Shown in pieces: positions 6,977 to 34,305 of a DNA stretch of 34,305 nt; within the stretch, counting starts at the first letter, position 1; every line of letters starts with the position of its first letter. The DNA is from a virus, in the IMG/VR virus record IMGVR_UViG_3300047552_000023, one strand, 5' to 3'. The translations under genes and the position numbers were made by a program. The notes below the pieces were generated by a model, which did not search any database, had not been told where the DNA came from, and was given only the letters and a program-made list of their open reading frames with translations.

Positions 6977-7882
6977 ATGGCAGTCGAAACCGCAACATCC
7001 ACACAAACCACACAGATTGACCCAACGATTCAGCCGTTTCTGAAATACGGTCTGGAAGAAGCTCAACGCTTATATCAAGCTGGTGGCCCACAGTATTACC
7101 AAGGTCAAGGCTATGTCGGCCCATCTGAAGCAACTCAGACTGCATTGCAGGCATTGCAAGCTCGCGCTGGTGCTGGTAGTCCTTTGTTGGGTTCTGCTCA
7201 AAATCAATTGATGGGTACTATCCAAGGTGACTATCTTGGTGGCAATCCATTCTTTCAAGGTGCTTTTCAGCCTGCCGCACAAGCTGCGACAAACGCTTTT
7301 AACACTGCAATCGGTAACGTTGCATCACAAGCGTCTAAGGCTGGTCGTTATGGCTCTGGCGCTATGACAAACCTTCAGAATCAAGCTGCTAACACATTGG
7401 CACAAAGCCTTACAGGTACGGCTGGACAATTGGCATATCAAAACTATGCTGACGAACGCGCTCGCCAACAGCAAGCAACATTCGGTGCGCCTCAAATGGC
7501 TGCTGCTGACTATGCTGACATTCAGCAAATGTTGGCTGCTGGTCAATTGGGCGAAGGCTACAAACAGCAAGCTCTGCAAGCTGATATGGCTAAGTATGCT
7601 TACGAGCAAAACTTGCCACAGCAGCAATTGACGAACTATCTGAATCAAGCTTACGGTTTCCCTGCTGGTCGCACTGCAACAACTCAAACACCTTACTTCA
7701 CTAACCCAACAGCTACGGCATTGGGTACAGGTTTGTTGGGTGTTCAATTGTTGGGTGGTCTTGATAAATTAGGCACTGGTGGAACTGGTGGTCTACAACA
7801 AGGTTGGAATTGGCTAACTGGTGGTTCAGGGACAAACTATGGTTCGATGCCTAGTGGCGTAGATCAATGGTGGTTAGGATAA
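6977..7882 (+). CDS. Internal virion/ejection-type protein (Gln/Ala/Gly-rich)
   Basis: 301 aa with an AAAGGTG RBS and low-complexity Q/A/G composition. It is the first of three consecutive such genes, as in podovirus core/ejection sets. Confidence 0.45.
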   Translation: MAVETATSTQTTQIDPTIQPFLKYGLEEAQRLYQAGGPQYYQGQGYVGPSEATQTALQALQARAGAGSPLLGSAQNQLMGTIQGDYLGGNPFFQGAFQPAAQAATNAFNTAIGNVASQASKAGRYGSGAMTNLQNQAANTLAQSLTGTAGQLAYQNYADERARQQQATFGAPQMAAADYADIQQMLAAGQLGEGYKQQALQADMAKYAYEQNLPQQQLTNYLNQAYGFPAGRTATTQTPYFTNPTATALGTGLLGVQLLGGLDKLGTGGTGGLQQGWNWLTGGSGTNYGSMPSGVDQWWLG

Positions 7883-9190: not shown

Positions 9191-11208
9191 ACCCAGATTT
9201 AACACTGCTATCTGACAAAGATTTAGAGGCTCTTTCTTCAGGAAAGATTGAGCTAATGTCTGACGCTGGATTGGCAATTCTTGCTGGTGAACAGCCAAAG
9301 GTTGCCGCTCCTAAGAAGATGACGGCAAAAGAAGAAGTGCAATCTGCTTTTGGATTTGATAAACCAAAGCCTCAAACTCAATCGGCTGGCGATCTTCTGC
9401 GTAATCTTGGGCTGACTGCTCGAGGTGCTTTAACTGGTGCTGCATCGTTGCCAGCCATGATTGCTGACGTTCCTGCAAGCCTTGTTAATCTTGCTGCTGG
9501 TCGTCAAATCTACAAGCCACAAGCAGAGGCTTTTGGTGATTTCTTGTCTTCTTTAGGCGCTCCAAAGGCTGAAACTCCAGCAGAACGCTTAATGACTGAA
9601 TCCGCTGCCGCCATTGGTGGTGTTGTTGCTCCTGCTGGAGTCGCTCAGAAAATTATTAGTTCTGCAATACCAACTGGATTGCTACCTGCCGCAGAAAAAG
9701 GCGTTTCACAAGCTGTATCAAGTGGGGCGGTAAGAGATTTCCTCGCAACAGGAAAGCCAATCACAGGTTATCAATTTGTTTCTAATGCGCCTGCAAGCAT
9801 TGCATATCCGACAATGATTGCTGAAAACGTGCCAGCTCAAATTGCTGCTGCTACTGGTGGTGCATTGGCTGGTGGTGCTGCGCGTGAAAGCGATGCAAAC
9901 CCATTGATGCAATTGATTGCTAGTATCGGTGGCGCTGCAACTCCAGCAGGCGCAATGGCTCTTGGCCCTGCTACTGTTAGAGCTGCAAAAGAGGTTGTTC
10001 GACCTGGCACTCAGGCTGGTCGTGAAGCTATTGCAGGCGGTGTGTTGCGTCAGTTGTCGCGTGAGCCTGAAACTGCAATTAAGGCGATGGAAGGTTATCA
10101 AGCTCCTGTTTCTGGTTACACCCCAACAGCAGCCCAAGCAAGCCGTGACGTTGGTTTGATTGCTGCTGAAACACCTATCCGAGCATTGGATGTAACTGGT
10201 AAATTTGGCGCTCAAGCATCTCAGGCAAATCAGGCTCGTATGGCAATCCTAGACCGTTTGGCCAAGGATAAACAAGCATTGGAATTTGCTGTTACAAAGC
10301 GTGATGATGTGTCAGACCCATTGCGTGAAGCGGCATTTGCCAAGTCAACAGTAAGTCCAGAAACTTTCCAATCTGCTGTCAATCTGACTGTAAATCAAAC
10401 AATTGATGACATTCTTGGTTCTAGTGCTGGCGCTCGTTCTACTGTTGAAAATACGATGAATTGGGCAAAAGAACAGATCAAGCGTGGCACTACTCCAGAG
10501 CGTCTATATGAGGTTCGCAAAGACTTGCGTGATGCTTCTCAAGGTCGTTTGGATAAAGATGGGGCGGCTTACAGCTTGGCAAAAGGTCAATTGGAACAAG
10601 TCATTAGATCAATTGATGATGCAATTGACGCTGCTGCACCTGGCTACAAAGACTATCTTAAAAAATACGCTCAATCTAGCAAGGGAATTGAGAAACTTGA
10701 AGCGGCACAAGAGTTCCGTGGGAAAGTTCTTTCAACTACGCCAGACCCTTCGCGCATTGGCGACTACATGATTTCACAGCCTTCATTCACACGCGCAATT
10801 CGTAATGCTGAAAAAGAGACTAATCTTTCAAACACTCAATTGGCTGTTTTGAAGAAAGTCGCTCAAGACTTGGATTCTGGCGTGTTGAATCGTGCGGTTA
10901 AGACACCTGGCTCTGATACATTCAAGAATCTAAGCACAGCAAATATCATTGGCGCTTTCATTGGAAAACAAATGTTTGGTGAAGTTCCAGCAGCAGTGAA
11001 TAAAGTTGCTGCGCCTTTGAATTGGCTCTATAACGGCACAGACGATCAGATTCGTGAGTTGTTGGTAGATGCCATGCTTGACCCGAAACTTGCGTCTAAA
11101 CTGATGACTAAGGCATCTGTCGTGAGTGTTGAGCCACTTAGCAAAGAACTTCAACGCAAAGCCATTGCCGCTGGTTATGGCGCTTCATTTGGATTAACGG
11201 AGAAATAA
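9187..11208 (+). CDS. Internal virion/ejection-type protein (largest, 673 aa)
   Basis: ATGA overlap with the upstream gene. It has an Ala/Gly-rich N-terminal third and a helical C-terminal part. It is the largest ORF in the tail region but is not tape-measure-like. Confidence 0.45.
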   Translation: MNPDLTLLSDKDLEALSSGKIELMSDAGLAILAGEQPKVAAPKKMTAKEEVQSAFGFDKPKPQTQSAGDLLRNLGLTARGALTGAASLPAMIADVPASLVNLAAGRQIYKPQAEAFGDFLSSLGAPKAETPAERLMTESAAAIGGVVAPAGVAQKIISSAIPTGLLPAAEKGVSQAVSSGAVRDFLATGKPITGYQFVSNAPASIAYPTMIAENVPAQIAAATGGALAGGAARESDANPLMQLIASIGGAATPAGAMALGPATVRAAKEVVRPGTQAGREAIAGGVLRQLSREPETAIKAMEGYQAPVSGYTPTAAQASRDVGLIAAETPIRALDVTGKFGAQASQANQARMAILDRLAKDKQALEFAVTKRDDVSDPLREAAFAKSTVSPETFQSAVNLTVNQTIDDILGSSAGARSTVENTMNWAKEQIKRGTTPERLYEVRKDLRDASQGRLDKDGAAYSLAKGQLEQVIRSIDDAIDAAAPGYKDYLKKYAQSSKGIEKLEAAQEFRGKVLSTTPDPSRIGDYMISQPSFTRAIRNAEKETNLSNTQLAVLKKVAQDLDSGVLNRAVKTPGSDTFKNLSTANIIGAFIGKQMFGEVPAAVNKVAAPLNWLYNGTDDQIRELLVDAMLDPKLASKLMTKASVVSVEPLSKELQRKAIAAGYGASFGLTEK

Positions 11209-11210
11209 GA

Positions 11211-12281
11211 ATGTCAAAAGACAAAATCAGCGATTACAGCGCAACAGCAAATTCCAATACGGACATTGCTGGCATTAACATTGACGAAGGATGTGCGCCA
11301 AGTGGCATTAACAACGCCATTCGTACATTGATGAAGCAGTTGAAAGACTGGCAATCAGGCTCGCAAGACGTTTACATCACACCTGCTGGTAGCGTTTCTG
11401 CTCCTGCTGTAACTACTACTGGCGACACTAACACTGGTGTTTATTTCCCTGCTGCTGACAAAGTTGCTATTGCAACTGGTGGAACTCAGGCTGTTATTGT
11501 TGACTCGTCACAGAACGTAGGTATTGGTACGAGTTCTCCCTCGGTTAAATTGCACGTAAAAGGCGGTAACAACAATACTGCATATTTAGATAATGATGGA
11601 AGTCAATATACAACTTCGTTTTTACTAAACAATGGAACAGGTAAAGCGTATTGGTCTTGGGATAACACTAATGCTGCTGTTATTTTGGGTTCTGATACAG
11701 CAAGTTCTTTGTTGACTTTTAAAACGGCTGGCTCAGAACGTATGCGTATCGACTCCAGCGGTAACTTGCTGGTGGGGGCTGCAAGCTCGGCAGGTGCTTA
11801 TAAAGTTCAGATTTACAGCACAAACCTTGCAACGACCACAAACGGTGTTCTTGTAACCAACGGGGCAAACTCAACAGGTGGTTATTTCCATGCGTTTCAA
11901 AACTATGTTGGAACAATCATTGGTTCTATCTCTCAAGCTACTTCAACAACAGTCAACTATGCAACGTCTTCTGACTATCGGCTAAAAGAAAACGTGCAAC
12001 CGATGACAGGTGCGTTGGCTACTGTGTCACAACTCAAACCAGTAAATTACACATGGAAATTGGATGGTTCATCTGGTCAAGGCTTTATTGCTCACGAGTT
12101 GGCAGAGGTGTTTCCAGAGGCGGTTGTTGGCGAAAAAGATGCCGTGGATGAAAAAGGCAACCCAAAATATCAAGGTATTGACACTAGCTTCTTGGTCGCA
12201 ACTCTGACAGCCGCTATTCAGGAGCAACAAGCCATCATCACATCTTTGACAGCCCGTATTGAAGCATTGGAGAACAAATGA
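11211..12281 (+). CDS. Tail fibre with C-terminal peptidase-S74 intramolecular chaperone domain
   Basis: 356 aa with a GGAG RBS. The C-terminus SSDYRLKENVQPM...LKPVNYTWK...GFIAHELAEVFPEAV...YQGIDTSFLVATLTAAIQEQQ matches the self-cleaving S74 chaperone motif (SDxRLK). Confidence 0.8.
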   Translation: MSKDKISDYSATANSNTDIAGINIDEGCAPSGINNAIRTLMKQLKDWQSGSQDVYITPAGSVSAPAVTTTGDTNTGVYFPAADKVAIATGGTQAVIVDSSQNVGIGTSSPSVKLHVKGGNNNTAYLDNDGSQYTTSFLLNNGTGKAYWSWDNTNAAVILGSDTASSLLTFKTAGSERMRIDSSGNLLVGAASSAGAYKVQIYSTNLATTTNGVLVTNGANSTGGYFHAFQNYVGTIIGSISQATSTTVNYATSSDYRLKENVQPMTGALATVSQLKPVNYTWKLDGSSGQGFIAHELAEVFPEAVVGEKDAVDEKGNPKYQGIDTSFLVATLTAAIQEQQAIITSLTARIEALENK

Positions 12282-13685: not shown

Positions 13686-14171
13686 ATGTTGCCAATAGTC
13701 GCTGGAATCGTAGCGAACCTAATCAACAACGGGATGCACAAGGTAGCAGACCAAGTGATTGAGAAGGGCGTTGATGCTGTACAACAAAAGCTAGGTATGG
13801 AGCTAAAGCCAGAAGGCGAAGCAACTCCTGAGTACAACGCCAAGCTCCAAGAGGAAGCCAACCGTCACAGCGAGTTCATGGCGACTCTTGATGAGAAGTC
13901 AACACAACGCGCCACAGATATGTATATGAACGATGAAGGCACACGCAAGTTTAGTCAGGCATACGCTTGGTTCATAACATCTGTTTCGTTTCTTTACTTC
14001 TTCTTGGTGTCTTTCATGCCAATTGAGAACCGTAACCGAGACTTCATCAACATCATTTTGGGTTTCTTGATTGGTACAGCGGTTAACTCGCTAATCAGAT
14101 TCTTCTACGGCTCAAGCAACAAAGCTCAAGAGGATGTGGACAAGAAGCAGAAAGAGCAGGCAGATAAATGA
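13686..14171 (+). CDS. Holin candidate
   Basis: 161 aa with an AAGGAAGGA RBS and two clear TM segments (WFITSVSFLYFFLVSFMPI, FINIILGFLIGTAVNSLIRFF). An ATGA overlap couples it to the endolysin. It resembles the GTA-type 3-TM holin family, as I recall it. Confidence 0.6.
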   Translation: MLPIVAGIVANLINNGMHKVADQVIEKGVDAVQQKLGMELKPEGEATPEYNAKLQEEANRHSEFMATLDEKSTQRATDMYMNDEGTRKFSQAYAWFITSVSFLYFFLVSFMPIENRNRDFINIILGFLIGTAVNSLIRFFYGSSNKAQEDVDKKQKEQADK

Positions 14172-14818
14172 CACCAACCATCGAACACCTGAAAGCCGCC
14201 AAGGTTAAGAGCCCTGAGAAGTGGATTGATGCTGTCGTTGCTACCTGTCAAGAATTTGAAATTAACACGCCTCAGAGGATTGCTTCGTTTTTGGCGCAGA
14301 CTTCGCACGAATCTGGCGGATATACAATGCTTTCCGAGAATCTTAACTATCGTGCCGCGACTCTTGCTGCTTGTTGGCCTAATCGTTTTGCTGTGCTTGG
14401 CTCGGACAAGAAGCCCATTAAAGAAAACGGCAAACTAGTTCCTACGGCTGTTGCAAACAGCATAGCTGGCAAGCCTGAACTTATCGCAAACTTGGTTTAC
14501 AGCGGTCGTATGGGCAACGGCCCTGCTGAATCTGGTGAAGGGTGGGCGTTCCGAGGCCGAGGTCTGAAGCAATTGACGGGCAAATTTAATTACACCAAAT
14601 GCTCTGAAGGGCTTGGCGTTGATCTAGTGGCTAACCCTGATTTGTTGCTTCAGCCTATCTATGCGGCAAGAAGTGCAGGATGGTTTTACAAGACAAACAA
14701 TCTTTCGTCATTTGCAGACGTTGGCGACATTAAGGGAATGACCAAGAAGATCAATGGCGGCTTCATTGGCTTAGAGCAGCGGCAGGCTCTGTACGATGCC
14801 TGTTTAAAAGCGTTCTAA
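14168..14818 (+). CDS. Endolysin, glycoside hydrolase family 19 (chitinase-like)
   Basis: 216 aa. It carries FLAQTSHESGGY, YSGRMGNGPAESGEGWAFRGRGLKQLTG and KKINGG, all classic GH19 endolysin motifs. Confidence 0.85.
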   Translation: MTPTIEHLKAAKVKSPEKWIDAVVATCQEFEINTPQRIASFLAQTSHESGGYTMLSENLNYRAATLAACWPNRFAVLGSDKKPIKENGKLVPTAVANSIAGKPELIANLVYSGRMGNGPAESGEGWAFRGRGLKQLTGKFNYTKCSEGLGVDLVANPDLLLQPIYAARSAGWFYKTNNLSSFADVGDIKGMTKKINGGFIGLEQRQALYDACLKAF

Positions 14819-24894: not shown

Positions 24895-25370
24895 GCAAGC
24901 CTAGAAAGAAATACAAACCCAAAGGCGTTCGTATGGATGCTCTGACATGGGTAATCAGCGGATTTAAAAAAGTCGCAGAAGTGCCAGACGCAGGGACTAA
25001 GCTGATGATTAAGAACCACGTTTCTTTTGACGAAATTCGTGAAGGTCGAGGCGACACGCACCATGTGGACAATCTCATCACAATGGTCAACTGCGCCGAG
25101 GCTCTGGCAAAGCGCCAGCTAGGTCGTGATTGGCTTGAGGAAATCGGACAGGCTCAAGATGCAATTTATGCGATGGCACAGCGTGGGGTAAGTGGAAAGA
25201 GCTTCATTTTTACTGGGGAAGAACTGAAAGCCGTTCAAACCATCGTTGAATTGCACGATGAGCAACTACGCAACTGTCCTGTCAGGACTTTGGAGCTTGC
25301 GCTTGAGGATATTGAGCGAGAATTTAAAGCCAACAAAATGCGCCGTATTCAACCATTGGAGACAGCATGA
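24891..25370 (+). CDS. Hypothetical protein (159 aa)
   Basis: ORF with ATGA overlaps and a basic N-terminus (KPRKKYKPKG). Function is unknown. Confidence 0.55.
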   Translation: MSKPRKKYKPKGVRMDALTWVISGFKKVAEVPDAGTKLMIKNHVSFDEIREGRGDTHHVDNLITMVNCAEALAKRQLGRDWLEEIGQAQDAIYAMAQRGVSGKSFIFTGEELKAVQTIVELHDEQLRNCPVRTLELALEDIEREFKANKMRRIQPLETA

Positions 25371-25573
25371 CACGCGATGAGATCATTGAAATCGCTAGAA
25401 GTGTCAACATTCATAGGTTTAGAGCTAAGAATCTTGAAAAATTTGTTGAAATAATCTTTGAAAAAGGCAGACAGCAAGGAATGAAACAAGAGCGAGCCTT
25501 GTGGAAACTTGCAGAAATATCTCAAGAACTTGGTGGATATGACCATGATGATTCCAAAATTCAACTACTTTAG
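25367..25573 (+). CDS. Hypothetical protein (68 aa)
   Basis: ATGA overlap upstream. The MTRDEIIEIA N-terminus resembles ORF 24694-24894. Confidence 0.5.
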   Translation: MTRDEIIEIARSVNIHRFRAKNLEKFVEIIFEKGRQQGMKQERALWKLAEISQELGGYDHDDSKIQLL

Positions 25574-25856
25574 AAGCAAACAGCATTTAAAGAATGTGGC
25601 TGAACTGCCATGCCAGAACTGCTACATTGAAGGACAAACCCAAGCCGCACATTCAAATTGGGCTGAACACGGCAAAGGCAGGGGAATCAAGGCAAGCGAT
25701 GAATTCACGGCTGCTTTGTGCCAAAAATGCCACACAGAGCTAGATCAAGGCGCTAGGCTGACAAAAGAACAGCGCAGGATGCTTTGGCAAATGGCGTATC
25801 AAAAGACTGTGGCAAAGCTAAAAGCTAGTGGGAAGTGGCCTGATGAACTACAATAA
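25545..25856 (+). CDS. Cys/His-rich DUF1364 (YbcO)-like / HNH-like protein, last early gene
   Basis: 103 aa from ATG 25545 (GGTGGA 7 nt upstream). LPCQNCYIEGQTQAAHSNW...GIKASDEFTAALCQKCHTELDQG gives CxxC...H...CxxCH. Confidence 0.6.
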   Translation: MMIPKFNYFRSKQHLKNVAELPCQNCYIEGQTQAAHSNWAEHGKGRGIKASDEFTAALCQKCHTELDQGARLTKEQRRMLWQMAYQKTVAKLKASGKWPDELQ

Positions 25857-25867
25857 CTCATCAGTTG

Positions 25868-25895
25868 CCTAGTTCTTTGTTCATGGGAAACTAGG
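25868..25895 (+). other. Stem-loop upstream of the terminator
   Basis: CCTAGTT (25868-25874) pairs with AACTAGG (25889-25895) across a 14-nt loop. No T-tract follows. Confidence 0.35.
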
Positions 25896-25900
25896 TCTTA

Positions 25901-25924
25901 AAGGCAGTTCGCTGCCTTCTTTTT
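25901..25924 (+). terminator. Strong rho-independent terminator between the early and late operons
   Basis: AAGGCAG (25901-25907), loop ttcg, CTGCCTT (25912-25918), then cttttt. It lies 45 nt after the last early stop and 11 nt before the first late ATG. Confidence 0.8.
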
Positions 25925-25935
25925 GAAAGGCTCTT

Positions 25936-26364
25936 ATGGCTGGCTTACTCGCCCCTGCTGCTGAAATCAAAGTTGAAATCGAGGAAATCGAGGCAGAAAA
26001 GCCCGTCATCGAAGGCTTGACAGCAGAATCAAACAAAAAAACACGCGATACCTTGGTTGAGACTCAGATGCTCGGCCCTGTCAAGGTTGACGCTCCAAAC
26101 AGCGAATACTGGCGCGGTCTTGCTAACGTCTGGCGTACATCTCCTGACCAAGCAAAACGCCGTCTGTGCGCTAATTGCGAATACTTTGACGACCAACCTG
26201 AAACCTTGGAAGCAATGGAAGTCGTGCCACAGGATGAGTTTGACAAAGACGGTGGTGGTCGTGGTTACTGCCACAAGTTTGAGTTCATTTGCCACAACCT
26301 TCGCGTCTGTAAGGCTTGGGAAAAAGCACCTGTGATGAAAGAGGCTGAGTATGAAGATGACTAA
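25936..26364 (+). CDS. Cys-cluster protein with HiPIP-like C-terminal motif
   Basis: 142 aa with a GAAAGG RBS and an acidic N-terminal half. The C-terminus is RLCANCEYF...GYCHKFEFICHNLRVCKAWEKA. For comparison, HiPIP as I recall it reads CANCQFM...GCQLFPG...WCASW. Confidence 0.5.
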   Translation: MAGLLAPAAEIKVEIEEIEAEKPVIEGLTAESNKKTRDTLVETQMLGPVKVDAPNSEYWRGLANVWRTSPDQAKRRLCANCEYFDDQPETLEAMEVVPQDEFDKDGGGRGYCHKFEFICHNLRVCKAWEKAPVMKEAEYEDD

Positions 26365-26515
26365 AGCTGGAGCCAAGAAAGTTGGCAAAGTAATGGGCGA
26401 ATACAAATCTGGCACTTTGCACTCAGGCAAAGGTGGAAAGGTTGTCACAAACCCAAAGCAAGGCATCGCAATCGCTTTGAGCGAGGCTAAAAAAGTGATG
26501 AAAAAGAAAAAGTGA
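26351..26515 (+). CDS. DUF6496-like basic microprotein (54 aa, below the track cutoff)
   Basis: Hand translation gives MKMTKAGAKKVGKVMGEYKSGTLHSGKGGKVVTNPKQGIAIALSEAKKVMKKKK. GAGG lies 6 nt upstream. It overlaps the upstream gene by 14 nt and the next gene by GTGA. Confidence 0.55.
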   Translation: MKMTKAGAKKVGKVMGEYKSGTLHSGKGGKVVTNPKQGIAIALSEAKKVMKKKK

Positions 26516-27144
26516 TTCCAAAGCGGCTTCACTTTGTTTGGGTCGGTGACGAATCCAAACGACCAGATCATTGCATTGAGACTTGGAAAACCCTGAATCC
26601 TGACTATGAGGTGAGGATTTGGGGCAATGCAGACCTGAAAAACACAAAATGGTTCAATGCCAAGCACATTCAGGAAATGGCTAAACACGAACTTTGCGGT
26701 GTTGCCGACCTGATGCGCTATGAAATCCTTTACAACGAAGGCGGGATAACGCTAGATGCTGATTCTGTCTGCCTTGCACCGCTAGAGGATTGGCTACTAA
26801 AGCCTGATGCTTTTGCGCATTGGGAACAGGAAACCCGAAGACATGGGCTGATTAACGTCAGCGTCATGGGTTCAATTCCACAAAATCCCTTCTTTGGTCA
26901 ATGTATTGAAGACCTAAGAGCCAAGGAAACCGTCACAAAGTACAGAGCTTGGGAAACAACTGGCCCAATGCACATTACTGAGGTTTACCATCAAACAGAG
27001 TATCCATTGACTGTTTACCCTTCACACTATTTCACAAGAGATCACTTCTCTGGATATAGGTACAAAGGCAACGGTCATTGTTTCGCTACCCAATTTTGGG
27101 GTTCTACAAAAGGCTATGAAAGGGCTAAAGAGTGGAAGATTTGA
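26512..27144 (+). CDS. DXD glycosyltransferase of the Gly_transf_sug type (GT32/Och1; TcdA/B-like sugar-binding region)
   Basis: 210 aa from GTG 26512. IPKRLHFVWVGDE and VADLMRYEILYNEGGITLDADS match the LHFVWIGG / ASDILR..L...GG.YLDVD signature. Confidence 0.8.
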   Translation: MIPKRLHFVWVGDESKRPDHCIETWKTLNPDYEVRIWGNADLKNTKWFNAKHIQEMAKHELCGVADLMRYEILYNEGGITLDADSVCLAPLEDWLLKPDAFAHWEQETRRHGLINVSVMGSIPQNPFFGQCIEDLRAKETVTKYRAWETTGPMHITEVYHQTEYPLTVYPSHYFTRDHFSGYRYKGNGHCFATQFWGSTKGYERAKEWKI

Positions 27145-27764
27145 TCGAAAACAGAGACGGATGGTGGTGGCCGAAGGCTGACGTTGAGGCGTGGAAATGG
27201 ATTCCCCGTGAGATGCAGGCCATCCCTGAGTTGGTGAAGTGGGTCCCACAGCGTAATTTGGTTCTCCATGCTGGTGGCAATTGCGGTGTCTGGTCAAAGA
27301 TTTATTCACAGCTTTTCACCAAAGTCGTGACTTTTGAGCCTGATGATGTGAACTATGAGTGCTTCAAGCGCAACGTAGACGAGCAAAATGTGGAAATCTA
27401 TAAGGCTGGTCTGTCTGATAAAGCAGGTTTTTGCCGCATGGTTGAGGGCGATGGCGAGAAGAACGCTGGTGCGCTCCAGATTGAGGAATGTGAATCTGGC
27501 ATCCCAATGATGACCATTGACAGCCTGAATCTTGACCCTGATTTGCTTCAGTTGGATGTTGAAGGGTTTGAGGAAAATGCACTCAAAGGCGCAAAGAAAA
27601 CCATCATGCGCTCACGCCCGATCATCATCATTGAGCAAAAGAAGCTCGGCAAAAACGGCATGACAGACCCCGAAATTGCTATAATGATTCAACGAATGGG
27701 CTACTTTTTCGCAGAGCGAGTGTGGTCTGATAACGTCTTTATTCCTGTGGAATTGGTTGACTGA
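27132..27764 (+). CDS. FkbM-family SAM-dependent methyltransferase
   Basis: 210 aa from GTG 27132 (13-nt overlap). VLHAGGNCGVWS...VVTFEPDDVNYECFKRNV...YKAGLSDKAG...DLLQLDVEGFEENALKGAKKTIMRSRPIIIIE is the Methyltransf_21/FkbM pattern. Confidence 0.8.
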   Translation: MEDLIENRDGWWWPKADVEAWKWIPREMQAIPELVKWVPQRNLVLHAGGNCGVWSKIYSQLFTKVVTFEPDDVNYECFKRNVDEQNVEIYKAGLSDKAGFCRMVEGDGEKNAGALQIEECESGIPMMTIDSLNLDPDLLQLDVEGFEENALKGAKKTIMRSRPIIIIEQKKLGKNGMTDPEIAIMIQRMGYFFAERVWSDNVFIPVELVD

Positions 27765-27765
27765 T

Positions 27766-29118
27766 ATGGACAATGAGTACCTAAAACGAATCTATGGCTT
27801 GCTTGAGTCTGGTGCGACTTTAGGTACTGGTGCTGTCTCAGGATTGGTTGGATTGCCATACGGTCTGTATAAAGGCGTTACAAGCGGTGCTTACGGTACG
27901 CCTGAAGCTCCAAGGATTGCGGCAAGAGAAGCGCAGCAGTTCATGGAGCGCAACACTTATCAACCAAGAACGGCTGAAGGTCAGGCAAATTTACAGCAAT
28001 TGGCTGGTTTGCTTGAGGCATCCAAACTGCCGCCTGTGATTCCTGAAGCCTCATTGTTGGCTGCTATTCCAAAACAAGCGTATGCGGCACAAGCTGAACG
28101 CGCTGGTATGGCGGCTGAGAAAGCCATTGCTCCTGTCGTGACTCGCACAATGGAGCGTGGCGGTCTGCCTGCTCAATTATTGGGTGATCTGAGCCAAGGT
28201 TCTATCAGGCAAATGGATGTTTGGCATGGTTCTCCACACGGCCCATTTGGTAGCTTTGACCCAAGCAAGGCTAGAACTGGCGAAGGTAATGCAACATTTG
28301 GTGAGGGTGCATATTTAGCCCAAGCTCGTGGTACAGGTGAGACATATAGAAATTCATTAAGCGATTTTGATTCTTATGTTGATGGAAAACCATTCAATCC
28401 AGATGAAATCTCTCACATGGCTGCAATGAGCGTATATCAAGCTGGAGACAATAAATCAAAAGCTATTGATACACTAAAAGAAGCAGTAAAAGATTTAAGT
28501 TCTAGAAATACAAAATGGGCTAATGATTTAGCATCTCAAAAACAGAAAGAAATTGATTATTTGAGCAAAGTAAAAGATTTGCCAAAATATGAGGAATCTT
28601 CAAAAGGCTATATTTATAAAGTAGATTTGCCTGACGAATCTATTGCAAAGATGCTTGATTACGACAAGCCATTGAGCCAACAGCCTAAAGAGGTTCAGGC
28701 TGCATTGGCAGAGCTTGGTATTAAGGTAGATAAAAAGAAGGTTGATGAATATTCTGATTCATTGCTTGATGCTTTGACAAATCCTAACTCAACTGGGAAG
28801 CTGCCTAAACAGCCAATTGACCTAACTGGTGAACAAATCCTGAAAGAGCTTGAGCGTAATCCATCTAGGTACTTTCCAAACGCAATGGAAGGAAAGGAGC
28901 TTACGGCTGCAATGATTAACCCTAGAGCTGGCGTTAGTGATTTGCTCGCTCAGAAGGGTATACCTGGCGTTCGATACCTTGACCAAATGAGCCGTGATGC
29001 TGGTGAAGGCACTTCAAATTTTGTTGTGTTTCCAAAATATCAAGAAACTCTAAAGATCAAAGAGATCAACGACAAACCTTATGAACAATGGTTTCCTAAG
29101 ACAAATCTGCTAGACTAA
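27766..29118 (+). CDS. 450-aa protein with PARP-like H-Y-x motif set (possible ADP-ribosyltransferase-fold effector)
   Basis: The start is ATG 27766, or TTG 27757 with an 8-nt overlap. The motifs are VWHGSPHGPFGSFD, TFGEGAYLAQARGTGETY, GYIYKVDLPDESIAKMLDYDKPLSQQP and GIPGVRYLDQMSRDAGEGTSNFVVF. The N-terminal 150 aa are Ala/Gly-rich, like the ejection proteins. Confidence 0.7.
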   Translation: MDNEYLKRIYGLLESGATLGTGAVSGLVGLPYGLYKGVTSGAYGTPEAPRIAAREAQQFMERNTYQPRTAEGQANLQQLAGLLEASKLPPVIPEASLLAAIPKQAYAAQAERAGMAAEKAIAPVVTRTMERGGLPAQLLGDLSQGSIRQMDVWHGSPHGPFGSFDPSKARTGEGNATFGEGAYLAQARGTGETYRNSLSDFDSYVDGKPFNPDEISHMAAMSVYQAGDNKSKAIDTLKEAVKDLSSRNTKWANDLASQKQKEIDYLSKVKDLPKYEESSKGYIYKVDLPDESIAKMLDYDKPLSQQPKEVQAALAELGIKVDKKKVDEYSDSLLDALTNPNSTGKLPKQPIDLTGEQILKELERNPSRYFPNAMEGKELTAAMINPRAGVSDLLAQKGIPGVRYLDQMSRDAGEGTSNFVVFPKYQETLKIKEINDKPYEQWFPKTNLLD

Positions 29119-29164
29119 CCACATATCAACAACACCAACGAGCCGTAAGGAATTGGTACACAAA

Positions 29165-29431
29165 ATGAGCAAAGCTGGTCGCCCCATTGGGAAGTTACAT
29201 CAAGACGACATTCGCAAGAAAATCCAAGCGAGTCAATTGATAAATGTCTTGCAAGATCATGCACTTACAGGTGAAGGCGAAATAACGCCTACACGCATGA
29301 AAGCAATTGAAATCCTTTTGCGTAAATCTATACCTGATTTGAGTTCTGTTGAGATTAGCGGTGACGAGGCAAACCCGCTAAACATGATTCAGACCATCAA
29401 CATCAATCTCAAGAAGCCTAATGAATCTTGA
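29165..29431 (+). CDS. terS: Terminase small subunit (putative)
   Basis: 88 aa. MSKAGRPIGK...TPTRMKAIEILLRKSIPDLSSVE resembles small-terminase N-termini. It overlaps the terL start by 11 nt. Confidence 0.55.
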   Translation: MSKAGRPIGKLHQDDIRKKIQASQLINVLQDHALTGEGEITPTRMKAIEILLRKSIPDLSSVEISGDEANPLNMIQTININLKKPNES

Positions 29432-30671
29432 ACTAGATTTCCCTGAAAAACTGGGATTCTTGTTTGAGCCAGCACGATACAAAATCCTTTACGGTGGTAG
29501 GGGTTCAGGTAAATCGTGGGGTGTTGCTCGCGCTTTGATCGCCATTGCAGTTCAAAAGCCGACTAGGGTTCTCTGCGCCCGTGAGCTTCAAAACTCAATC
29601 TCAGACTCAGTTATTGCCCTGCTCCATGACCAAATCAAGGCTATGGGGCTTGAGTCGTTTTTTGACGTACAGCGTACAGCTATCTACGGAGTCAACGGCT
29701 CTGAGTTCTCGTTTGCTGGTCTGAAACACAACGTCACATCCATCAAGTCGTTTGAGGGCGTGGATATTTGCTGGATTGAAGAAGGTCAGGCGGTGTCTAA
29801 AGTCTCTTGGGAAACCCTGATTCCTACCATCCGCAAGCCAAACTCTGAGATTTGGGTGACTTTCAACCCTGATCTAGATACTGACGAGACTTACAAGCGA
29901 TTCGTGATTAACGCGCCAGCAAGCGCACAAGTCCACAAGGTCAACTGGTCTGATAACCCTTGGTTTCCTGAAGTTCTCAAAGAGGAGCTTGAAAACCTCA
30001 AAGAGAAGGACATGGACAGCTATCTCAACGTCTGGGAAGGTCACACCCGTCAGATGTTGGATGGCGCTGTTTACGCTAACGAGCTAAGAAAAGCCCAAGA
30101 GGACAACAGAATCCGTGACTTGCTGATTGACAAGACTATCCCTGTCCAGACGTTCTGGGACTTGGGGTGGGCAGATATGACTTCAATTTGGTTTGTTCAG
30201 GCAATCCCTGGCGGTGAAGTGCGAGTCATCGACTTCTATCAAAACTGCCAAAAGCCAATTGACCACTACGCTCAAATCCTGCAAGACAAGGGCTACATCT
30301 ATCGTGATTGGTGGCTACCACACGATGCAGAACACAAGAATATGACGGGTCGTTCGGTCAAAGACATTCTGACTGAGATGGGCAAACCAGTACGAATCAC
30401 GCCAAAACTGTCAATTTCTGACGGTATCAACGCTGCTCGTATGCTGCTCAACAGGTGTTACTTTGACGAAACACGCTGTGCTGACGGACTCCAAAACCTA
30501 CGCCATTACCGCTATGACGTAGACCCAAACACAAAGATGTTTAGCAATAAACCGCTTCACGATCAGCACTCACACGCTGCTGACGCTTTCCGTTACCTTG
30601 CCGTTGGACTAGATGAATCAGGTTCATCTTGGTCTAAATCCATCAACCAACCAAAGAAATGGGTCGTATGA
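29421..30671 (+). CDS. terL: Terminase large subunit
   Basis: 416 aa. It has a Walker A in YKILYGGRGSGKSWGVARAL, a Walker B-like VDICWIEEGQ, and C-terminal nuclease acidic residues (WDLGWADMT, HDAEH, HAADAFRY). Confidence 0.9.
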   Translation: MNLELDFPEKLGFLFEPARYKILYGGRGSGKSWGVARALIAIAVQKPTRVLCARELQNSISDSVIALLHDQIKAMGLESFFDVQRTAIYGVNGSEFSFAGLKHNVTSIKSFEGVDICWIEEGQAVSKVSWETLIPTIRKPNSEIWVTFNPDLDTDETYKRFVINAPASAQVHKVNWSDNPWFPEVLKEELENLKEKDMDSYLNVWEGHTRQMLDGAVYANELRKAQEDNRIRDLLIDKTIPVQTFWDLGWADMTSIWFVQAIPGGEVRVIDFYQNCQKPIDHYAQILQDKGYIYRDWWLPHDAEHKNMTGRSVKDILTEMGKPVRITPKLSISDGINAARMLLNRCYFDETRCADGLQNLRHYRYDVDPNTKMFSNKPLHDQHSHAADAFRYLAVGLDESGSSWSKSINQPKKWVV

Positions 30672-30856
30672 ACTACATAATCCGCAAAGGCGATATTCCT
30701 GACAACCGTAGAATTGAGGCACTTGAGCGCCGAATTGATTTGCTTGAAAATATGGTAAACGCATTACAATCGGAGCAACGCCCAAAGATGGGCAGGCCAC
30801 CAAAGGTAAAAGATGAGCCAAGAAAAACTGAAAGCGATCATCTCAGCGGAGATTGA
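30668..30856 (+). CDS. Small ORF (62 aa) between terL and portal
   Basis: ATGA overlap with the terL stop. It contains a coiled segment and GRPPKVK. It overlaps the portal start by 44 nt, so coding status is uncertain. Confidence 0.35.
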   Translation: MNYIIRKGDIPDNRRIEALERRIDLLENMVNALQSEQRPKMGRPPKVKDEPRKTESDHLSGD

Positions 30857-32894
30857 TAACTCGATTGGTTTCTTAGAAACAGAAACCACGCAACAACGCA
30901 CAGACGCAATTCAAGCCTATTTGCGTCAACCTTACGGCAACGAGGTCGAAGGTAAGTCATCCATCGTTACTGGTGAAGTCGCTGAAGCTGTGGATGGCGC
31001 TTTGCCACCTTTGGTTCGCATCTTCTCGTCAAGTGACGAAGTTGTGCGCTTTGACGCTCGTGGCCCACAAGATGAGGCTGGCGCTAAACAAGCCACCGAA
31101 TACTGTAACTGGGTGTTCATGCGTGACAATGACGGTCTTATTGTCATGCACGATTGGTTCAAAGATGCTCTATTACAAAAAGTTGGTGTCGTTAAAGCCT
31201 ATTGGGAAGACAAAGAAGACGTCACGAAAGAAAAATATCGTGATCTGTCTGACGATGAGTTGGCAATGCTTCTTTCTGACGAAACAATGGAAGTCGTTGA
31301 GAAAGAGGTTGTCGAAAACGAACTGCTAGACCCTATGGGTAATACTGTGCTTGACCAACTCGGTCAGCCTGTGATGTATTCGTCTAACAGCGTAACAGTT
31401 CAAAAGAAAAAGAAGTCTGGTCATGTGGTTGTGGAAAACATACCGCCAGAGGAGTTCTTGATCTCCAAGCGTGCCAAGCGTAGCCCTGAAGATTCGCCAT
31501 TTGTGGCACATCGCCGCCTAATCACTCGTAGCGACTTGATCGCAATGGGTTTTGATGCTGACGTGGTGAATGGCTTGCAATCGTCAGATTCGCTGACTTT
31601 CTCGCCTGAATACTTGGCTCGCGTCAGCAACGGTGAGAATCCTGATGACGGTCAAAGCCTTGACGAAGCAATGCAAACCATTGAGGTGTTTGAGTGCTAC
31701 GTTCGCGCCGACATTGATGGTGACGGTATCGCTGAACTGCGCCAAGTTTTCTACGCCTCAAACGAGATTTTGAGCGATGAGGAAACTGACTACGTTCCGT
31801 TCCACTCACTCTGCCCAATCCCAACTCCACACAAGTTTTTTGGCGAATCGTTGGCAGATCGCACAATGGACATTCAGCTTATCAAGACCACTCTGACTCG
31901 TCAGATTCTCGATAACCTGTATCTAACAAACAACGCCCGTGTGACAGCCGTTGACGGTCAAGTAAACCTTGACGACTTGCTGACTTCAAGCGCAGGTGGT
32001 GTGATTCGCGTAAAGACGCCTGGCGCTGTGAGCCAATTGAATGTGCAATCAATCGCAGGTCAGACATTCCCATTCTTGCAATACCTTGATTCTGTCCAAC
32101 AGAAACGCACTGGCGTAACTGAGGCAAGCCAAGGCTTAGACCCATCTATCCTGCAAAACGTCACTGCCGCTGCTGTTGCTTCTATGCAGCAAAGCTCTGC
32201 TGGCAAGATTGAGATGATCGCTCGAATCTTTGCTGAAACAGGCGTTAAGTCATTGTTCAAAGGCATCTTGCATCTTCTCTGCAAGTACCAAGACAAGCCA
32301 CGAATCATCCGTATGCGTGGTCAATACGTTCAATTTGACCCACGTGAGTGGTCGAATCAGTACGATGTGGACATTAACGTTGGTTTGGGCGCTGGCAACC
32401 GCCAAGAGCAAATGGCAATGTTGAACATGGTTCTCGCTAAACAAGAGCAAATCTTGGGTCAAATGGGGCCAGCTAATCCATTGGTAACAATGGGTCAGTA
32501 CCGCAACACATTGGGTCGTATGGTTGAAGCTGCTGGCTTTAAGGATTCTGCCGAGTTCTACAAGTCCATCACGCCTGAACAAGATCAGATGATGAGCCAA
32601 CCACAACCTCAACAACAGCAAATTCCACCTGAAGTGCAAGCGTATATGGCTAAGACTCAGGCAGATATTCAAGCTCAACAAGCTAAAGCACAGGCTGACA
32701 TTCAGTTGGCACAGCAAAAAGCTGTTGCTGACTTGCAATTGATGCGTGAAAAGAACGCTGCTCAGATCGAATTGGAGCGTGAAAAGGCTGCTGCTCAAAT
32801 GGCTCTAAAGCAAGAGGAATTCTTGGCAGAGGCTCAAATGAAAGCCATGAAGGTTGGTGCTGGCATCACTTCTAACGTTGAAATTCCAGGTTAA
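30813..32894 (+). CDS. Portal protein
   Basis: 693 aa. DGDGIAELRQVFY...PHKFFGESLADRTMDIQLIKTTLTRQILDNLYLTNNAR...GGVIRVK is a typical portal core. The C-terminal tail is Gln-rich and coiled. Confidence 0.85.
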   Translation: MSQEKLKAIISAEIDNSIGFLETETTQQRTDAIQAYLRQPYGNEVEGKSSIVTGEVAEAVDGALPPLVRIFSSSDEVVRFDARGPQDEAGAKQATEYCNWVFMRDNDGLIVMHDWFKDALLQKVGVVKAYWEDKEDVTKEKYRDLSDDELAMLLSDETMEVVEKEVVENELLDPMGNTVLDQLGQPVMYSSNSVTVQKKKKSGHVVVENIPPEEFLISKRAKRSPEDSPFVAHRRLITRSDLIAMGFDADVVNGLQSSDSLTFSPEYLARVSNGENPDDGQSLDEAMQTIEVFECYVRADIDGDGIAELRQVFYASNEILSDEETDYVPFHSLCPIPTPHKFFGESLADRTMDIQLIKTTLTRQILDNLYLTNNARVTAVDGQVNLDDLLTSSAGGVIRVKTPGAVSQLNVQSIAGQTFPFLQYLDSVQQKRTGVTEASQGLDPSILQNVTAAAVASMQQSSAGKIEMIARIFAETGVKSLFKGILHLLCKYQDKPRIIRMRGQYVQFDPREWSNQYDVDINVGLGAGNRQEQMAMLNMVLAKQEQILGQMGPANPLVTMGQYRNTLGRMVEAAGFKDSAEFYKSITPEQDQMMSQPQPQQQQIPPEVQAYMAKTQADIQAQQAKAQADIQLAQQKAVADLQLMREKNAAQIELEREKAAAQMALKQEEFLAEAQMKAMKVGAGITSNVEIPG

Positions 32895-32905: not shown

Positions 32906-33715
32906 ATGGGATGGGGACTAGGCAGCTTAAACCCTGTAAAAATTGCACAGAAGGCAATAAACACGGCTGGAGATATTGGTCAAGGTGCTATTGATACAGC
33001 AAAAGACCTTGGCGCTGGACTTGATAGAACCGTAAGAAGCACATTGCCTGGCGGCTGGACTACTGCCGCTTTGTTGGCTGCTGGTTATTACTATTCACCT
33101 GAAATCAATGCTTATCTAAGTGCTGATGGCACAACAATGGCCGCTGGTGCTGATGTTGCAGCCGCTGATGCTGCTGCCGCTACTGCCGCAGAACAAGCTG
33201 CCGCCGCAGCCGCCGCTGAACAAGCCGCCGCAGCTCAAGCTGCTGAGATTGCCGCACAAAATGCCGCTTGGGATGCTGCCGCAATTGATCTTGCTAATTC
33301 AGCATCCCCTGTATTTGCCACATCTGCCGCTGCTGCTGGTTTGACTTTTAAAGAGGCTTTGGACTACGCTCGCGCTGGTTTGTTGGTGAACGCATTAACT
33401 GGTGACCCACTTGGACTGTCTGATGTAACTGGTAGCGGTGGTAACACATACGCCAATCAAGGCTTTGCACAAGTTCCAATTCCTGAAGATTGGAAGTCGC
33501 CAACTTACGCTGCTTCATCTGCACCAATTGACTTAGAGTCGATTTTCAGCAATCAGAATATGCTTGGTGGCACACAATGGGCTGGTTTGCCAAGTCAACG
33601 CAATATGTCGTTCAATGATATATTTGCCGCAGGACAGCAATCAACGCCAATGGGTACGCCTGTTGACATTAACCAGATCGTGAGTTCAATCCTTGGACAA
33701 ACCACAGTTAGCTAA
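32906..33715 (+). CDS. Ala-rich low-complexity head-module protein
   Basis: 269 aa with a GGGGA RBS. It has a poly-Ala/Gln core (AAADAAAATAAEQAAAAAAAEQAAAAQAAEIAAQNAA) and lies between portal and scaffold. Confidence 0.5.
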   Translation: MGWGLGSLNPVKIAQKAINTAGDIGQGAIDTAKDLGAGLDRTVRSTLPGGWTTAALLAAGYYYSPEINAYLSADGTTMAAGADVAAADAAAATAAEQAAAAAAAEQAAAAQAAEIAAQNAAWDAAAIDLANSASPVFATSAAAAGLTFKEALDYARAGLLVNALTGDPLGLSDVTGSGGNTYANQGFAQVPIPEDWKSPTYAASSAPIDLESIFSNQNMLGGTQWAGLPSQRNMSFNDIFAAGQQSTPMGTPVDINQIVSSILGQTTVS

Positions 33716-33962: not shown

Positions 33963-34305
33963 ATGAGCGAAAACACGACACCGCAAGGTAGTGGGCCGCT
34001 GACGGTGGACACAGCCGCAGCAGCATTTCTAGGCATGATGGATGCAGCAGAGGGAGCTGAAAACAGCCAACCTGAAACTGAGGAAGCCGCCGAGGAATAT
34101 GTTGAGGAATCTGAGTCACAGTTGGTAGATTCTGAAGAAGCTGAAGAACAGCCTACACGAACTTTCCGCATTAAAGCTGCTGGTGAAGATCGTGAAGTAA
34201 CTGAGACTGAGCTTATTGAGGGCTACCAATTAGGCGCGGATTACACCAAGAAAACCCAGAAACTTGCTGAAGAACGCAAAGCGGTGGAAGCCGAACGAGC
34301 GAAAA
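33963..34305 (+). CDS. Scaffolding protein, 5' part (runs off the window; continues at 3-722)
   Basis: ATG 33963 with no stop before the window end. It has an acidic N-terminus (EEAAEEYVEESESQLVDSEEAEE). The last 117 nt duplicate bases 1-117. Confidence 0.65.
   Translation, partial: MSENTTPQGSGPLTVDTAAAAFLGMMDAAEGAENSQPETEEAAEEYVEESESQLVDSEEAEEQPTRTFRIKAAGEDREVTETELIEGYQLGADYTKKTQKLAEERKAVEAERAK
34189..34305. repeat. Terminal direct repeat copy 2 (circular-assembly overlap)
   Basis: Identical to bases 1-117. Confidence 0.9.

Follow-up and report, generated by a model that had tools for sequence, protein, structure and literature searches.

The late operon of the virus genome IMGVR_UViG_3300047552_000023 (IMG/VR; the whole stretch of 34,305 nucleotides analysed here is referred to as the window) raises the question of whether the five genes that stand between a transcription terminator and the small terminase gene terS belong together. 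An initial annotation, made from the sequence, had taken them to be a translationally coupled cargo module. As a description of the DNA this is largely right, and all five open reading frames (ORFs) are present on the + strand: g1 (25936-26364, 142 aa), g2 (26351-26515, 54 aa), g3 (26512-27144, 210 aa, GTG start), g4 (27132-27764, 210 aa, GTG start) and g5 (27766-29118, 450 aa from ATG, with TTG 27757 also in frame). The first four genes are joined by overlaps of 14, 4 and 13 nt, and g5 follows after a gap of 1 nt or, if read from TTG 27757, overlaps g4 by 8 nt. A hairpin with a T-run (25901-25927) lies upstream of the block, and terS, the large terminase gene terL and an SU10-type portal gene lie after it. 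The unifying interpretation, in contrast, does not hold. The block is better described as three separately inherited units that head the late operon, namely a core of g1 and g2, an optional pair of g3 and g4 and a swappable slot occupied by g5. The g5 gene of the window would then be one allele of a hypervariable cargo slot, composed of a leader, an effector and an LLD tail. We put the probability of this composite reading as a whole at about 60%.

Inheritance of the five genes in related phages

The distribution of the genes was first followed in 65 related IMG/VR loci anchored on g1. Because this set was selected on g1, the census was redone on 24 loci anchored on the portal gene, for which the sole selection was the presence of at least 8 kb upstream of the portal. 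In the portal-anchored census g1 and g2 are each present in 24/24 loci. The claim that none of the five genes is needed for any standard morphogenetic step is untenable for these two, which are universal core genes. The glycosyltransferase (GT) gene g3 and the methyltransferase (MT) gene g4 occur in seven of the 24 loci and are never split. A g5 homologue is detectable in three (two without the GT-MT pair and one with it), and all five genes are found together in one. The presence of g5 is uncorrelated with that of the pair. Across the g1-anchored loci the order HNH, g1, g2 is kept almost everywhere, and every apparent case of a GT without an MT is a contig that ends just past g1. Between the MT gene (or g2) and terL there are 405 to about 3,000 bp. 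At the level of single genomes, locus L064 is 95-100% identical to the window over g1-g4 and lacks g5, its MT gene abutting terS. MW202710, a complete genome, combines g1 and g2 with a cargo gene that bears the leader and lacks both GT and MT.

The units thus vary independently in related loci, and for this reason the block is not one module; such independent occurrence had been named beforehand as an outcome that would speak against a unit. We consider it very improbable that the five genes form one co-functional, co-translated system, be it one pathway for a glycan or a concerted group of effectors that modify the host, and in our view the census has already largely refuted this. What speaks for such a system is the unbroken run of tightly overlapping genes on one strand behind a single terminator, and the recurrence of the order g1, g2, GT, MT, (cargo), terS in MW202462 and in several IMG/VR contigs. 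Against it stand the single locus of 24 with all five genes, the loss of g5 in L064 and the loss of the GT-MT pair in MW202710, which retains g1, g2 and a cargo. Nor do the tight junctions mark a unit, since such junctions are the rule throughout this genome: of its 41 pairs of consecutive genes on the same strand, 32 overlap or are no more than 3 nt apart, so that the overlaps that had been taken to argue for co-translation are not distinctive. Tight overlaps behind one terminator are therefore not equivalent to a functional module in phage late operons, which is a lesson for annotation. Of the two functions proposed for the block, glycan building plus capping survives for g3 and g4, in view of their bacterial island homologues and of a GT-A-like gene next to the capsid gene. 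The late-made packaged effector survives for g5, which is probably of the ART-PolyVal type, shares its leader with other cargos and has relatives in structural modules elsewhere. Neither function extends to the block as a whole.

The slot upstream of terS and its g5 allele

Between the MT gene (or g2) and terS about 20 protein clusters are found across the relatives. Cargo domains were clustered with strict coverage; single linkage chained multidomain proteins. The right-hand border of the slot is a conserved terS leader, CCAACGAGCCGTAAGGAATTGGTA (29135-29158, +), which holds the Shine-Dalgarno sequence of terS and is identical or near-identical behind every cargo type, past about 16 variable nt. 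The terS gene itself (29165-29431, +; the ATG start is preferred, with TTG 29153 possible) is the right anchor. The 986 homologues found in a deep search with g5 fall into two kinds. Those of the first kind are full-length (38-92% identity), while those of the second have only the first 33-38% of the protein in common, at 70-97% identity, and carry a C-terminal LPD23, M78/DUF6782 peptidase, MATCAP-like or GNAT domain. In the related loci, at least seven unrelated C-terminal domains are found behind the junction motif ...MERGG[LM]PAQLL.DLS.GS, and the cargos that bear the leader include a PBECR5 RNase, a protein with an HExxH motif recognized by eye, an ADP-ribosyltransferase (ART) joined to a GNAT domain and a ParB-C-like domain. 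Some slot relatives are multidomain (ART plus GNAT in L044, peptidase plus a PBECR-like domain in L172), and g5 of the window has one recognizable effector domain. Giant PHROG families of 1,664-3,513 aa contain internal regions that match several of the slot domains. The repertoire as a whole is that of the 'polyvalent proteins', which have been argued to be packaged and injected (Iyer et al., 2017; PMC5512222).

The same slot also accommodates a MATCAP-like peptidase cargo (C9, 354 aa) that has a different N-terminus and ends in ...GLLR. In L046, L049, L050, L052 and L053 the gene after C9 is in every case C10, which encodes a predicted membrane protein of 119 aa; the arrangement resembles a toxin/immunity pair. 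Mobile or unrelated genes are likewise found in the slot, namely a ParB-DNA methyltransferase, an HNH gene and a 207-210-aa ORF, C11, that we judge from its sequence to be GIY-YIG-like.

In g5 the leader comprises aa 1-148 (27766-28209, +); it is helical, ends in MERGGLPAQLLGDLSQGS and is modelled by AlphaFold2 (AF2) as helices with predicted local distance difference test (pLDDT) values of 35-75. The effector (aa 149-447; 28210-29106, +) consists of a predicted H-Y-D ART core, a helical insert and a conserved C-terminal subdomain. The H-Y motifs noticed in the initial annotation are confirmed: H154 (WHGSPH; 28225-28227, +) and Y183 (GEGAYLA; 28312-28314, +), together with D287 (YKVDLPDE; 28624-28626, +), are invariant in 40 g5 homologues and are the candidate catalytic residues. 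D406 (RYLD), conserved in more than 90%, is a second candidate acidic residue. In the AF2 model (core pLDDT 80-97) H154 lies in strand 1 (150-156), Y183 in strand 2 (182-185) and D287 in strand 5 (282-288); the ART-PolyVal family is defined by His in strand 1, Tyr in strand 2 and Asp in strand 5 (PMC5512222). Among the 40 full-length homologues, 18 match PF18760 (E ≤ 0.01, best 4e-7), five match DUF3990 and one matches PARP. The ART assignment is drawn from these homologues, because Pfam detects nothing in g5 of the window itself; g5 does have a weak PHROG match (phrog_873, E 2.2e-5). On the basis of sequence and model we regard g5 as a probable divergent member of ART-PolyVal and treat it as working like such an enzyme.

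A number of results weigh against this view of g5 and its leader. The window protein itself gives no Pfam hit at E ≤ 0.1 and no significant NCBIfam match, and the three PF18760 hits that were scored individually reach 19.5-30.9 bits, all below the gathering threshold of 31.2. A fold search with full-length g5 returned nothing significant, with only weak segments of tankyrase PARP, although the floppy leader probably dilutes this search. Single-sequence and profile searches of the PDB with g5 were uninformative. A hidden Markov model of the leader matches no other protein of the window, the leader matches no known capsid-targeting domain, and for the MuF domain (PF04233, PF06152, MuF3/4) there is no Pfam hit on g5 at E ≤ 0.1.

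The L-L-D tail of g5 and its stop codon (29107-29118, +) form the conserved end of nearly all slot cargos. LL[DE] ends 63 of 120 homologues, and [GSNAT]LL is found within the last nine residues of 91/120, compared with 5.7 expected. An internal LLG[DQ] is found where leader and effector meet and also where further domains are appended. The ART part of L044, for example, ends ...KTNEGLLGQSKP... and is followed by the GNAT domain, which ends ...NLLD.

From its position in the late operon, adjoining the packaging genes, and from the modular build of the slot proteins we infer that g5 is made late and would be loaded into the procapsid via the leader and/or the terminal GLL/LLD peptide. It would then be ejected with the DNA, and as the next infection begins it would ADP-ribosylate a host protein. 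The competing explanation, which we regard as unlikely, is that slot cargos are left unpackaged and exert their effect late in the cell that makes them, for example as toxins for anti-defence, host shutoff or competition between phages, with leader and tail serving as recombination joints. The DNA offers some grounds for it. In the clade of the window the tail codons are near-fixed (CTG YTA GAC TAA, then about 16 variable nt), and because of this near-invariance the tail could be a recombination joint only; the LLD-stop codons and the terS leader are near-identical in DNA across cargo types. The slot moreover hosts mobile genes that are not effectors (ParB-methyltransferase, HNH and C11), and C9 is invariably trailed by its small, immunity-like membrane ORF. 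A leader of 148 aa with conservation at the protein level nevertheless exceeds the needs of a joint, and in L069 the tail survives as GGLLAP, with other codons and in an unrelated downstream context. The family is also embedded in structural modules of other phages: in the 45-kb phage L071 a g5 homologue lies between the SU10-adaptor gene and downstream structural genes, and in MW202879 the order is orf434-like, orf673-like (two large ORFs described below), g1-like and leader-cargo gene. The domain repertoire, finally, is the one argued to be injected, and loading into the head is the reading that we prefer.

A bolder extension of the packaging proposal, which we offer as a long shot drawn by analogy, is that the terminal 'GLL' peptide is a capsid-cargo tag usable at either end of a protein, so that a metal-cluster protein and enzymes would be co-injected from an HK97-fold capsid. 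The forms of the peptide are C-terminal ...[N/S/G]LLD, ...GLLAP and ...GLLGR on effectors and N-terminal M-x-G-L-L-A-P on g1, whose start, MAGLLAP, resembles the GGLLAP with which some cargo proteins end. Among standalone g1 homologues, counted as independent clusters, 17 of 147 start with M-x-G-L-L, where 1.6 are expected. If true, this would be a phage counterpart of encapsulin cargo-loading peptides, and the HiPIP-like domain of g1, with its 496 clusters at 50% identity, would be a common constituent of phage heads that has so far gone unrecognized.

The g1-g2 core and the glycosyltransferase-methyltransferase pair

The g1 protein has no match in Pfam, PHROGs or NCBIfam. In 35 diverse homologues C78, C81, C112 and C125 are invariant, and W66, F117, R123 and W128 are conserved besides the cysteines. 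The order C78-x2-C81, C112, C125, followed by W128, is the ligand order CxxC...C...C of high-potential iron-sulfur proteins (HiPIPs). When the AF2 model (pLDDT 88.8) was compared with the PDB using Foldseek, the top 16 matches were all HiPIPs (E 0.055-1.2, probability ≤0.95, target-normalized TM 0.32-0.64), and these are the sole meaningful PDB fold matches of g1. The suggestion of a cysteine cluster with a HiPIP-like motif is thus upheld for the four invariant cysteines, has a possible counterpart in the modelled fold and fails for membership at the level of sequence profiles. The latter was rejected because no Pfam hit was obtained and because hhalign of the g1 family against C. vinosum HiPIP aligns the CxNC segment only (probability 2%, 17 columns); sequence and profile searches of the PDB found no HiPIP and nothing informative. 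GenBank pipelines label phage homologues of g1 'high potential iron-sulfur protein'. A literature search gave nothing on HiPIP-like phage proteins, DUF6496, DUF6321 or DUF5824.

An exhaustive search places the g1 domain in 496 clusters at 50% identity, many of them inside proteins of 200-1,243 aa. Its fusion partners are the Peptidase_S78 prohead protease, S78_2/XkdF, ChaB, the Mu-type portal (Portal_Mu) and Zeta_toxin, as well as cytidylyltransferase-like, DUF5824, DUF5754 and DUF6321 domains. These are capsid-resident or capsid-entering proteins, or proteins of the polyvalent type. Because the domain is fused to prohead proteases, portals and polyvalent proteins, we place the probable site of action of g1 in or at the procapsid. 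It is probably a head-associated protein whose modelled domain, at residues ~30-135, would bind a metal or an Fe-S cluster.

The HiPIP fold E-values are weak (0.05 or higher), which together with the hhalign result weighs against an Fe-S cluster of the HiPIP kind, and we hold a structural zinc site to be as likely as Fe-S. A fully non-Fe-S g1, in which the cysteines form a structural zinc site in an assembly or DNA-binding domain for head assembly or packaging and the likeness to HiPIPs is convergent, is a serious possibility to which we give somewhat less than even odds. It agrees with the missing relationship at sequence level, with fold E-values of 0.05-1 and with a gene that always adjoins packaging or head genes. 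It agrees as well with the N-terminal region (MAGLLAPAAEIKVEIEEIEAEK), which is acidic and in which no signal-peptide features are apparent by eye, no predictor having been applied. It has to reckon, on the other hand, with fold matches that are HiPIPs without exception among the top 16, and with the order CxxC...C...CxxW, which together with W66, F117 and W128 mimics the cluster pocket of a HiPIP.

The second core protein, g2, was correctly assigned to DUF6496 (Pfam, 40.3 bits against a cut-off of 24, 4.2e-10). It is a lysine-rich microprotein of 54 aa that always occurs with g1 and is 59-93% identical across the 24/24 portal-anchored loci, even where g1 has drifted to about 35%. In a contig of an Arenimonas metagenome-assembled genome (MAG) g2 adjoins the portal gene, and in MW202701 (L278, 5323-5598) it is fused to a 52-aa basic ORF, C13, that is recurrent elsewhere. 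Sequence and profile searches of the PDB with g2 were uninformative. A further small ORF of about 85 aa (C1; phrog_7595, weak DUF5754 match), with the motif KPKxTPSHPxKSHVV…IRFGQQG…ARH, follows the MT gene or g1 in most relatives (e.g. L001 and L005) and is not found in the window. Since some phages join the g1 domain, DUF5824 and DUF5754 within a single polypeptide (P0309), the arrangement in the window looks like an unfused version.

The families proposed for g3 and g4 are well supported. The g3 protein is a DXD glycosyltransferase (Gly_transf_sug, PF04488, 42.2 bits against 23) with the DXD motif at D82-A-D84 in GGITLDADSV, and is a GT-A enzyme of 210 aa that belongs to GT32. Of the TcdA/B-Och1 type suggested for it, the TcdA_TcdB part is retained, with an N-terminal match of 31.6 against 23.6. 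Among solved structures it comes nearest to Legionella SetA (1.7e-9) and TcdB (6e-7), followed by TcdA, TcsL and TpeL, while Och1 reaches only 0.15; the matches to the toxins are confined to the generic N-terminal and DXD segments. The g4 protein is an FkbM methyltransferase (PF05050, 44.5 against 22.7, 2.5e-11; TIGR01444, 67.6 against 37.7, 1.5e-18; phrog_8156, 8.7e-29). GT and MT are ordinary families in an unusual setting. Homologues of g3 at 55-60% identity are found on bacterial chromosomes of Aquabacterium, Burkholderiaceae and Planktomarina. Two metagenome contigs carry islands of the type GT41(OGT-like)-GT2-GT32-methyltransferase(s) beside pilD, and in Aquabacterium sp. J223 a GT32-MT-x-GT2-GT11 island lies beside flhDC and motAB.

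Within the phage, a GT-A-like putative glycosyltransferase is encoded at 2025-2645 (+), directly after the capsid gene and orf102. It has a DSD motif (D72-S-D74) and matches phrog_1574 (8e-21) and phrog_34859, 'glycosyltransferase' (5e-6); its best PDB match is the GT-A enzyme STIV A197 (E 0.027), and its homologue in MW202462 is unannotated. When its presence is set against that of the GT-MT pair, both occur in seven genomes, the pair alone in none, the GT-A-like gene alone in two and neither in 13; the GT-A-like gene is thus found in 2/15 genomes without the pair. This setting fits a small glycan-building and methyl-capping pathway, plausibly acting on protein. The g3 and g4 enzymes would extend and methyl-cap a glycan, most likely a protein-borne one, in the infected cell, and would probably work with the GT-A-like gene product. 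Some findings count against this. The link between the pair and the GT-A-like gene tracks one capsid lineage (major capsid protein 84-93% against 63-68% identical) and, as it follows this single lineage, the association is phylogenetically confounded. Neither the GT-A-like nor the FkbM gene of the phage is homologous to the partners in the bacterial GT32 islands. The capsid C-terminus was considered as a glycosylation tail and rejected, because genomes with and without the GT differ there trivially.

No candidate acceptor site was found on the capsid protein. The orf128 and orf275 products were likewise tried as GT-linked substrates and set aside, since both are nearly universal and show no specific linkage. 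A match to a known O-antigen seroconversion cassette, another outcome named beforehand as speaking against the module, was not obtained: none of the five proteins matches the GtrA, GtrB, type-specific Gtr or Oac families in Pfam, PHROGs or NCBIfam.

The alternative target of g3 and g4 is the host, either through toxin-like glycosylation of a protein in the style of SetA and TcdB or through modification of a surface glycan or appendage (flagellin, pilin or lipopolysaccharide), which would block superinfection or keep progeny from being trapped on debris. We consider this doubtful, though not negligible. The closest solved relatives of g3 are indeed protein-glucosylating toxins, and the islands that hold its bacterial homologues adjoin flagellar genes and pilD and include an OGT-like GT41. 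The toxin matches do not, however, extend past generic segments, and neither a membrane-associated Gtr-type match nor a flippase partner is seen. Expression from the late operon of a phage in which no integrase was detected, either among the proteins scanned or in the annotations of its two complete relatives, is not the usual setting for seroconversion, and the pair is restricted to genomes that have the capsid-adjacent GT-A-like gene. A pathway acting on a glycan, most likely a protein-borne one, is the interpretation that we prefer for g3 and g4.

Genome context and comparison with known systems

The window holds the complete genome of a phage, circularly permuted and with 34,188 unique bp, in which the scaffold gene spans the ends; this follows from an exact 117-bp direct repeat (1-117 and 34189-34305), the signature of a circular assembly. 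The phage is a P22-like podovirus of about 34.2 kb, with an SU10-type portal, from freshwater metagenomes. A search for near-identical DNA among known phages matched only two or three uncultured Manatee Spring phages, at about 77% identity. No integrase was detected among the proteins scanned or in the annotations of two complete relatives, and no prohead protease was detected in this phage. A search for hosts with g1 in GTDB genomes returned nothing, and with the portal it gave one contig of a Burkholderiaceae MAG. A portal gene at 66% identity, with g1-like and g2-like genes upstream, is found on contig L273 (RFQL01000098.1), which was assigned to the bin of a freshwater Burkholderiaceae MAG, and the best cellular homologues of g3 come from Aquabacterium and Burkholderiaceae. 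These sequences give a weak hint that the host is possibly a freshwater member of the Burkholderiales.

Upstream of g1, the terminator-like hairpin AAGGCAG-TTCG-CTGCCTT with its T-run (25901-25927, +) ends 8 nt before the start codon. A T-run is present within the last 45 nt before g1 in 37 of 42 distinct upstream regions of relatives, behind different GC-rich stems; as the structure recurs with differing stem sequences, the terminator is a real, conserved feature. With the T-run so close to the start of g1, late transcripts must read through it, which suggests Q-like or RNA-based antitermination. The intergenic leader between the HNH gene and g1 (25857-25935, +) contains, in this order, a conserved motif, CAGTTGCC (25862-25869, +), a first hairpin (25868-25895) and the terminator. 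Ahead of the terminator GCAGTTGC(C/A) recurs in most of the 42 distinct leaders despite the differing stems, the motif preceding the hairpins of relatives being CAGTTGC. It may be a late-promoter or antitermination element. A scan of 25300-29500 with Rfam gave a chance sub-threshold match only and none for the leader motif. Further upstream, nearly all relatives, like the window, carry an HNH/DUF968 nuclease gene directly 5' of g1 (25509-25856, +, in the window; phrog_131, 2.5e-26). In some phages an HNH gene located next to the terminase genes assists in the packaging of DNA; here the slot genes separate the HNH gene from terS.

On the other side of the slot, terS and terL (29421-30671) overlap by 11 nt, and the portal gene is at 30813-32894. 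The packaging module is a mosaic among the relatives (L004-L068, L154-L272), in which the portal stays 70-99% identical. At least three types of terL are seen, being 78-95% identical to that of the window, about 40% identical or undetectable, with a 475-486-aa protein (cluster C7) instead. Two terS types occur, clusters C0 and C3, of which C0 precedes terL in most relatives. The gene directly 3' of the portal (32906-33715, +) encodes 269 aa, compared with 508-540 aa in MW202710 and MW202462; its conservation is limited to the C-terminal part, it has no family matches and its position is that of the MuF gene in other phages. The remaining identified genes are those for the scaffold (96-722), the capsid (736-1686), a 'DNA ejection protein' (6977-7882), a tailspike with an S74 chaperone domain (11211-12281) and a GH19 lysin (14168-14818). 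The ejection-protein gene is followed by two large ORFs, orf434 (7886-9190, +; 434 aa) and orf673 (9187-11208, +; 673 aa), neither of which has a family assignment; orf434 starts MALLDFYG…GGLLGSD, with an LL/GLL motif near the N-terminus. A Ser/Ala-rich protein of 275 aa, orf275 (3653-4480, +), has repeats of about 20 aa (…ASVS.SASVSCEA.RVA.G…), the N-terminus MADLLPP and repeated 'N.W.DV'-type motifs at the C-terminus, and its homologue in MW202462 bears the annotation 'serine-rich adhesin'.

If g5 and its slot-mates are packaged, they would constitute a compact natural system for interchangeable enzyme loading in abundant freshwater podoviruses, and the combination of leader, cargo and three-residue tail could also be taken as a design rule when phages are engineered to deliver proteins. 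In addition, the slot offers a catalogue of candidate counter-defence or host-takeover enzymes, present as single domains that are not buried in giant polyvalent proteins. The HiPIP-like domain is widespread and repeatedly fused to prohead proteases and portals, and a redox-active cluster in phage heads would be unexpected.

Compared with true HiPIPs (PF01355), g1 has four cysteines in the same order CxxC...C...CxxW and nearby aromatic residues, and its model may share their fold. It lacks a profile relationship, an apparent signal peptide and a periplasmic context, has about 50 extra N-terminal residues, and its domain is fused to capsid-associated rather than electron-transfer proteins. Judged from the model, g1 would resemble HiPIPs in fold only. 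Bacterial protein-glycosylation islands contain a GT32 that is 55-60% identical to g3, and the phage similarly combines GT-A-like, GT32 and methyltransferase genes; unlike the islands, it has no OGT-like initiating enzyme, and the partner genes are not homologous. Glycosylation of mycobacteriophage virions is mentioned in PMC11256854.

The proposed tag invites comparison with encapsulins, although the analogy is a pure one. Encapsulin cargo-loading peptides and the C-terminal capsid-targeting tail of the HK97 prohead protease are short terminal peptides used with HK97-fold shells. Like these, the GLL/LLD peptides are terminal on unrelated cargos, but the motif sequence differs.

The ART-PolyVal domain of polyvalent proteins has H/Y/D in strands 1/2/5; g5 agrees in His and Tyr and has D287 as the candidate Asp, and homologues of g5 match PF18760, of the Tox-ART-HYD2 clade (PMC5512222). 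They further share with the slot PBECR5, LPD23, zincin-like peptidases, ParB-C and GNAT domains and the company of late or packaging genes. They are giants of 2-15 domains, whereas the slot proteins are small, with one to three domains, and add a leader of about 148 aa, an LLD/GLL tail and a fixed locus upstream of terS. Polyvalent proteins are characterized by at least two disparate activities, which places g5 of the window outside them, and by a location among late or packaging genes, in which g5 agrees. The HiPIP-like g1 domain, DUF6496, GT32 and FkbM are unmentioned in PMC5512222. MuF polymorphic toxins (Jamet et al., 2017; PMC5576092) likewise combine a conserved N-terminal module with variable C-terminal toxin domains. 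ARTs make up 14% of these toxin domains, the genes belong to the DNA-packaging module and co-injection has been proposed (PMC5576092). The MuF gene lies 3' of the portal gene and has an immunity ORF, whereas g5 lies 5' of terS with terS directly next. Moreover, g5 has no MuF domain, and MuF phages are temperate, while no integrase was found here.

A parallel for the action proposed for g5 is T4 Alt, also a late-encoded ART, for which the logic would be the same: late synthesis, packaging and action at the next infection. Alt is packaged and injected (summarized in PMC5512222), and the T4 prohead protease removes its N-terminal capsid-targeting sequence. Whereas Alt belongs to the R-S-E ARTs, g5 is a probable H-Y-D one and so would be of a different ART clade. 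By analogy, g5 and its slot appear closest to polyvalent proteins and MuF toxins in their logic, and to T4 Alt in the proposed mechanism.

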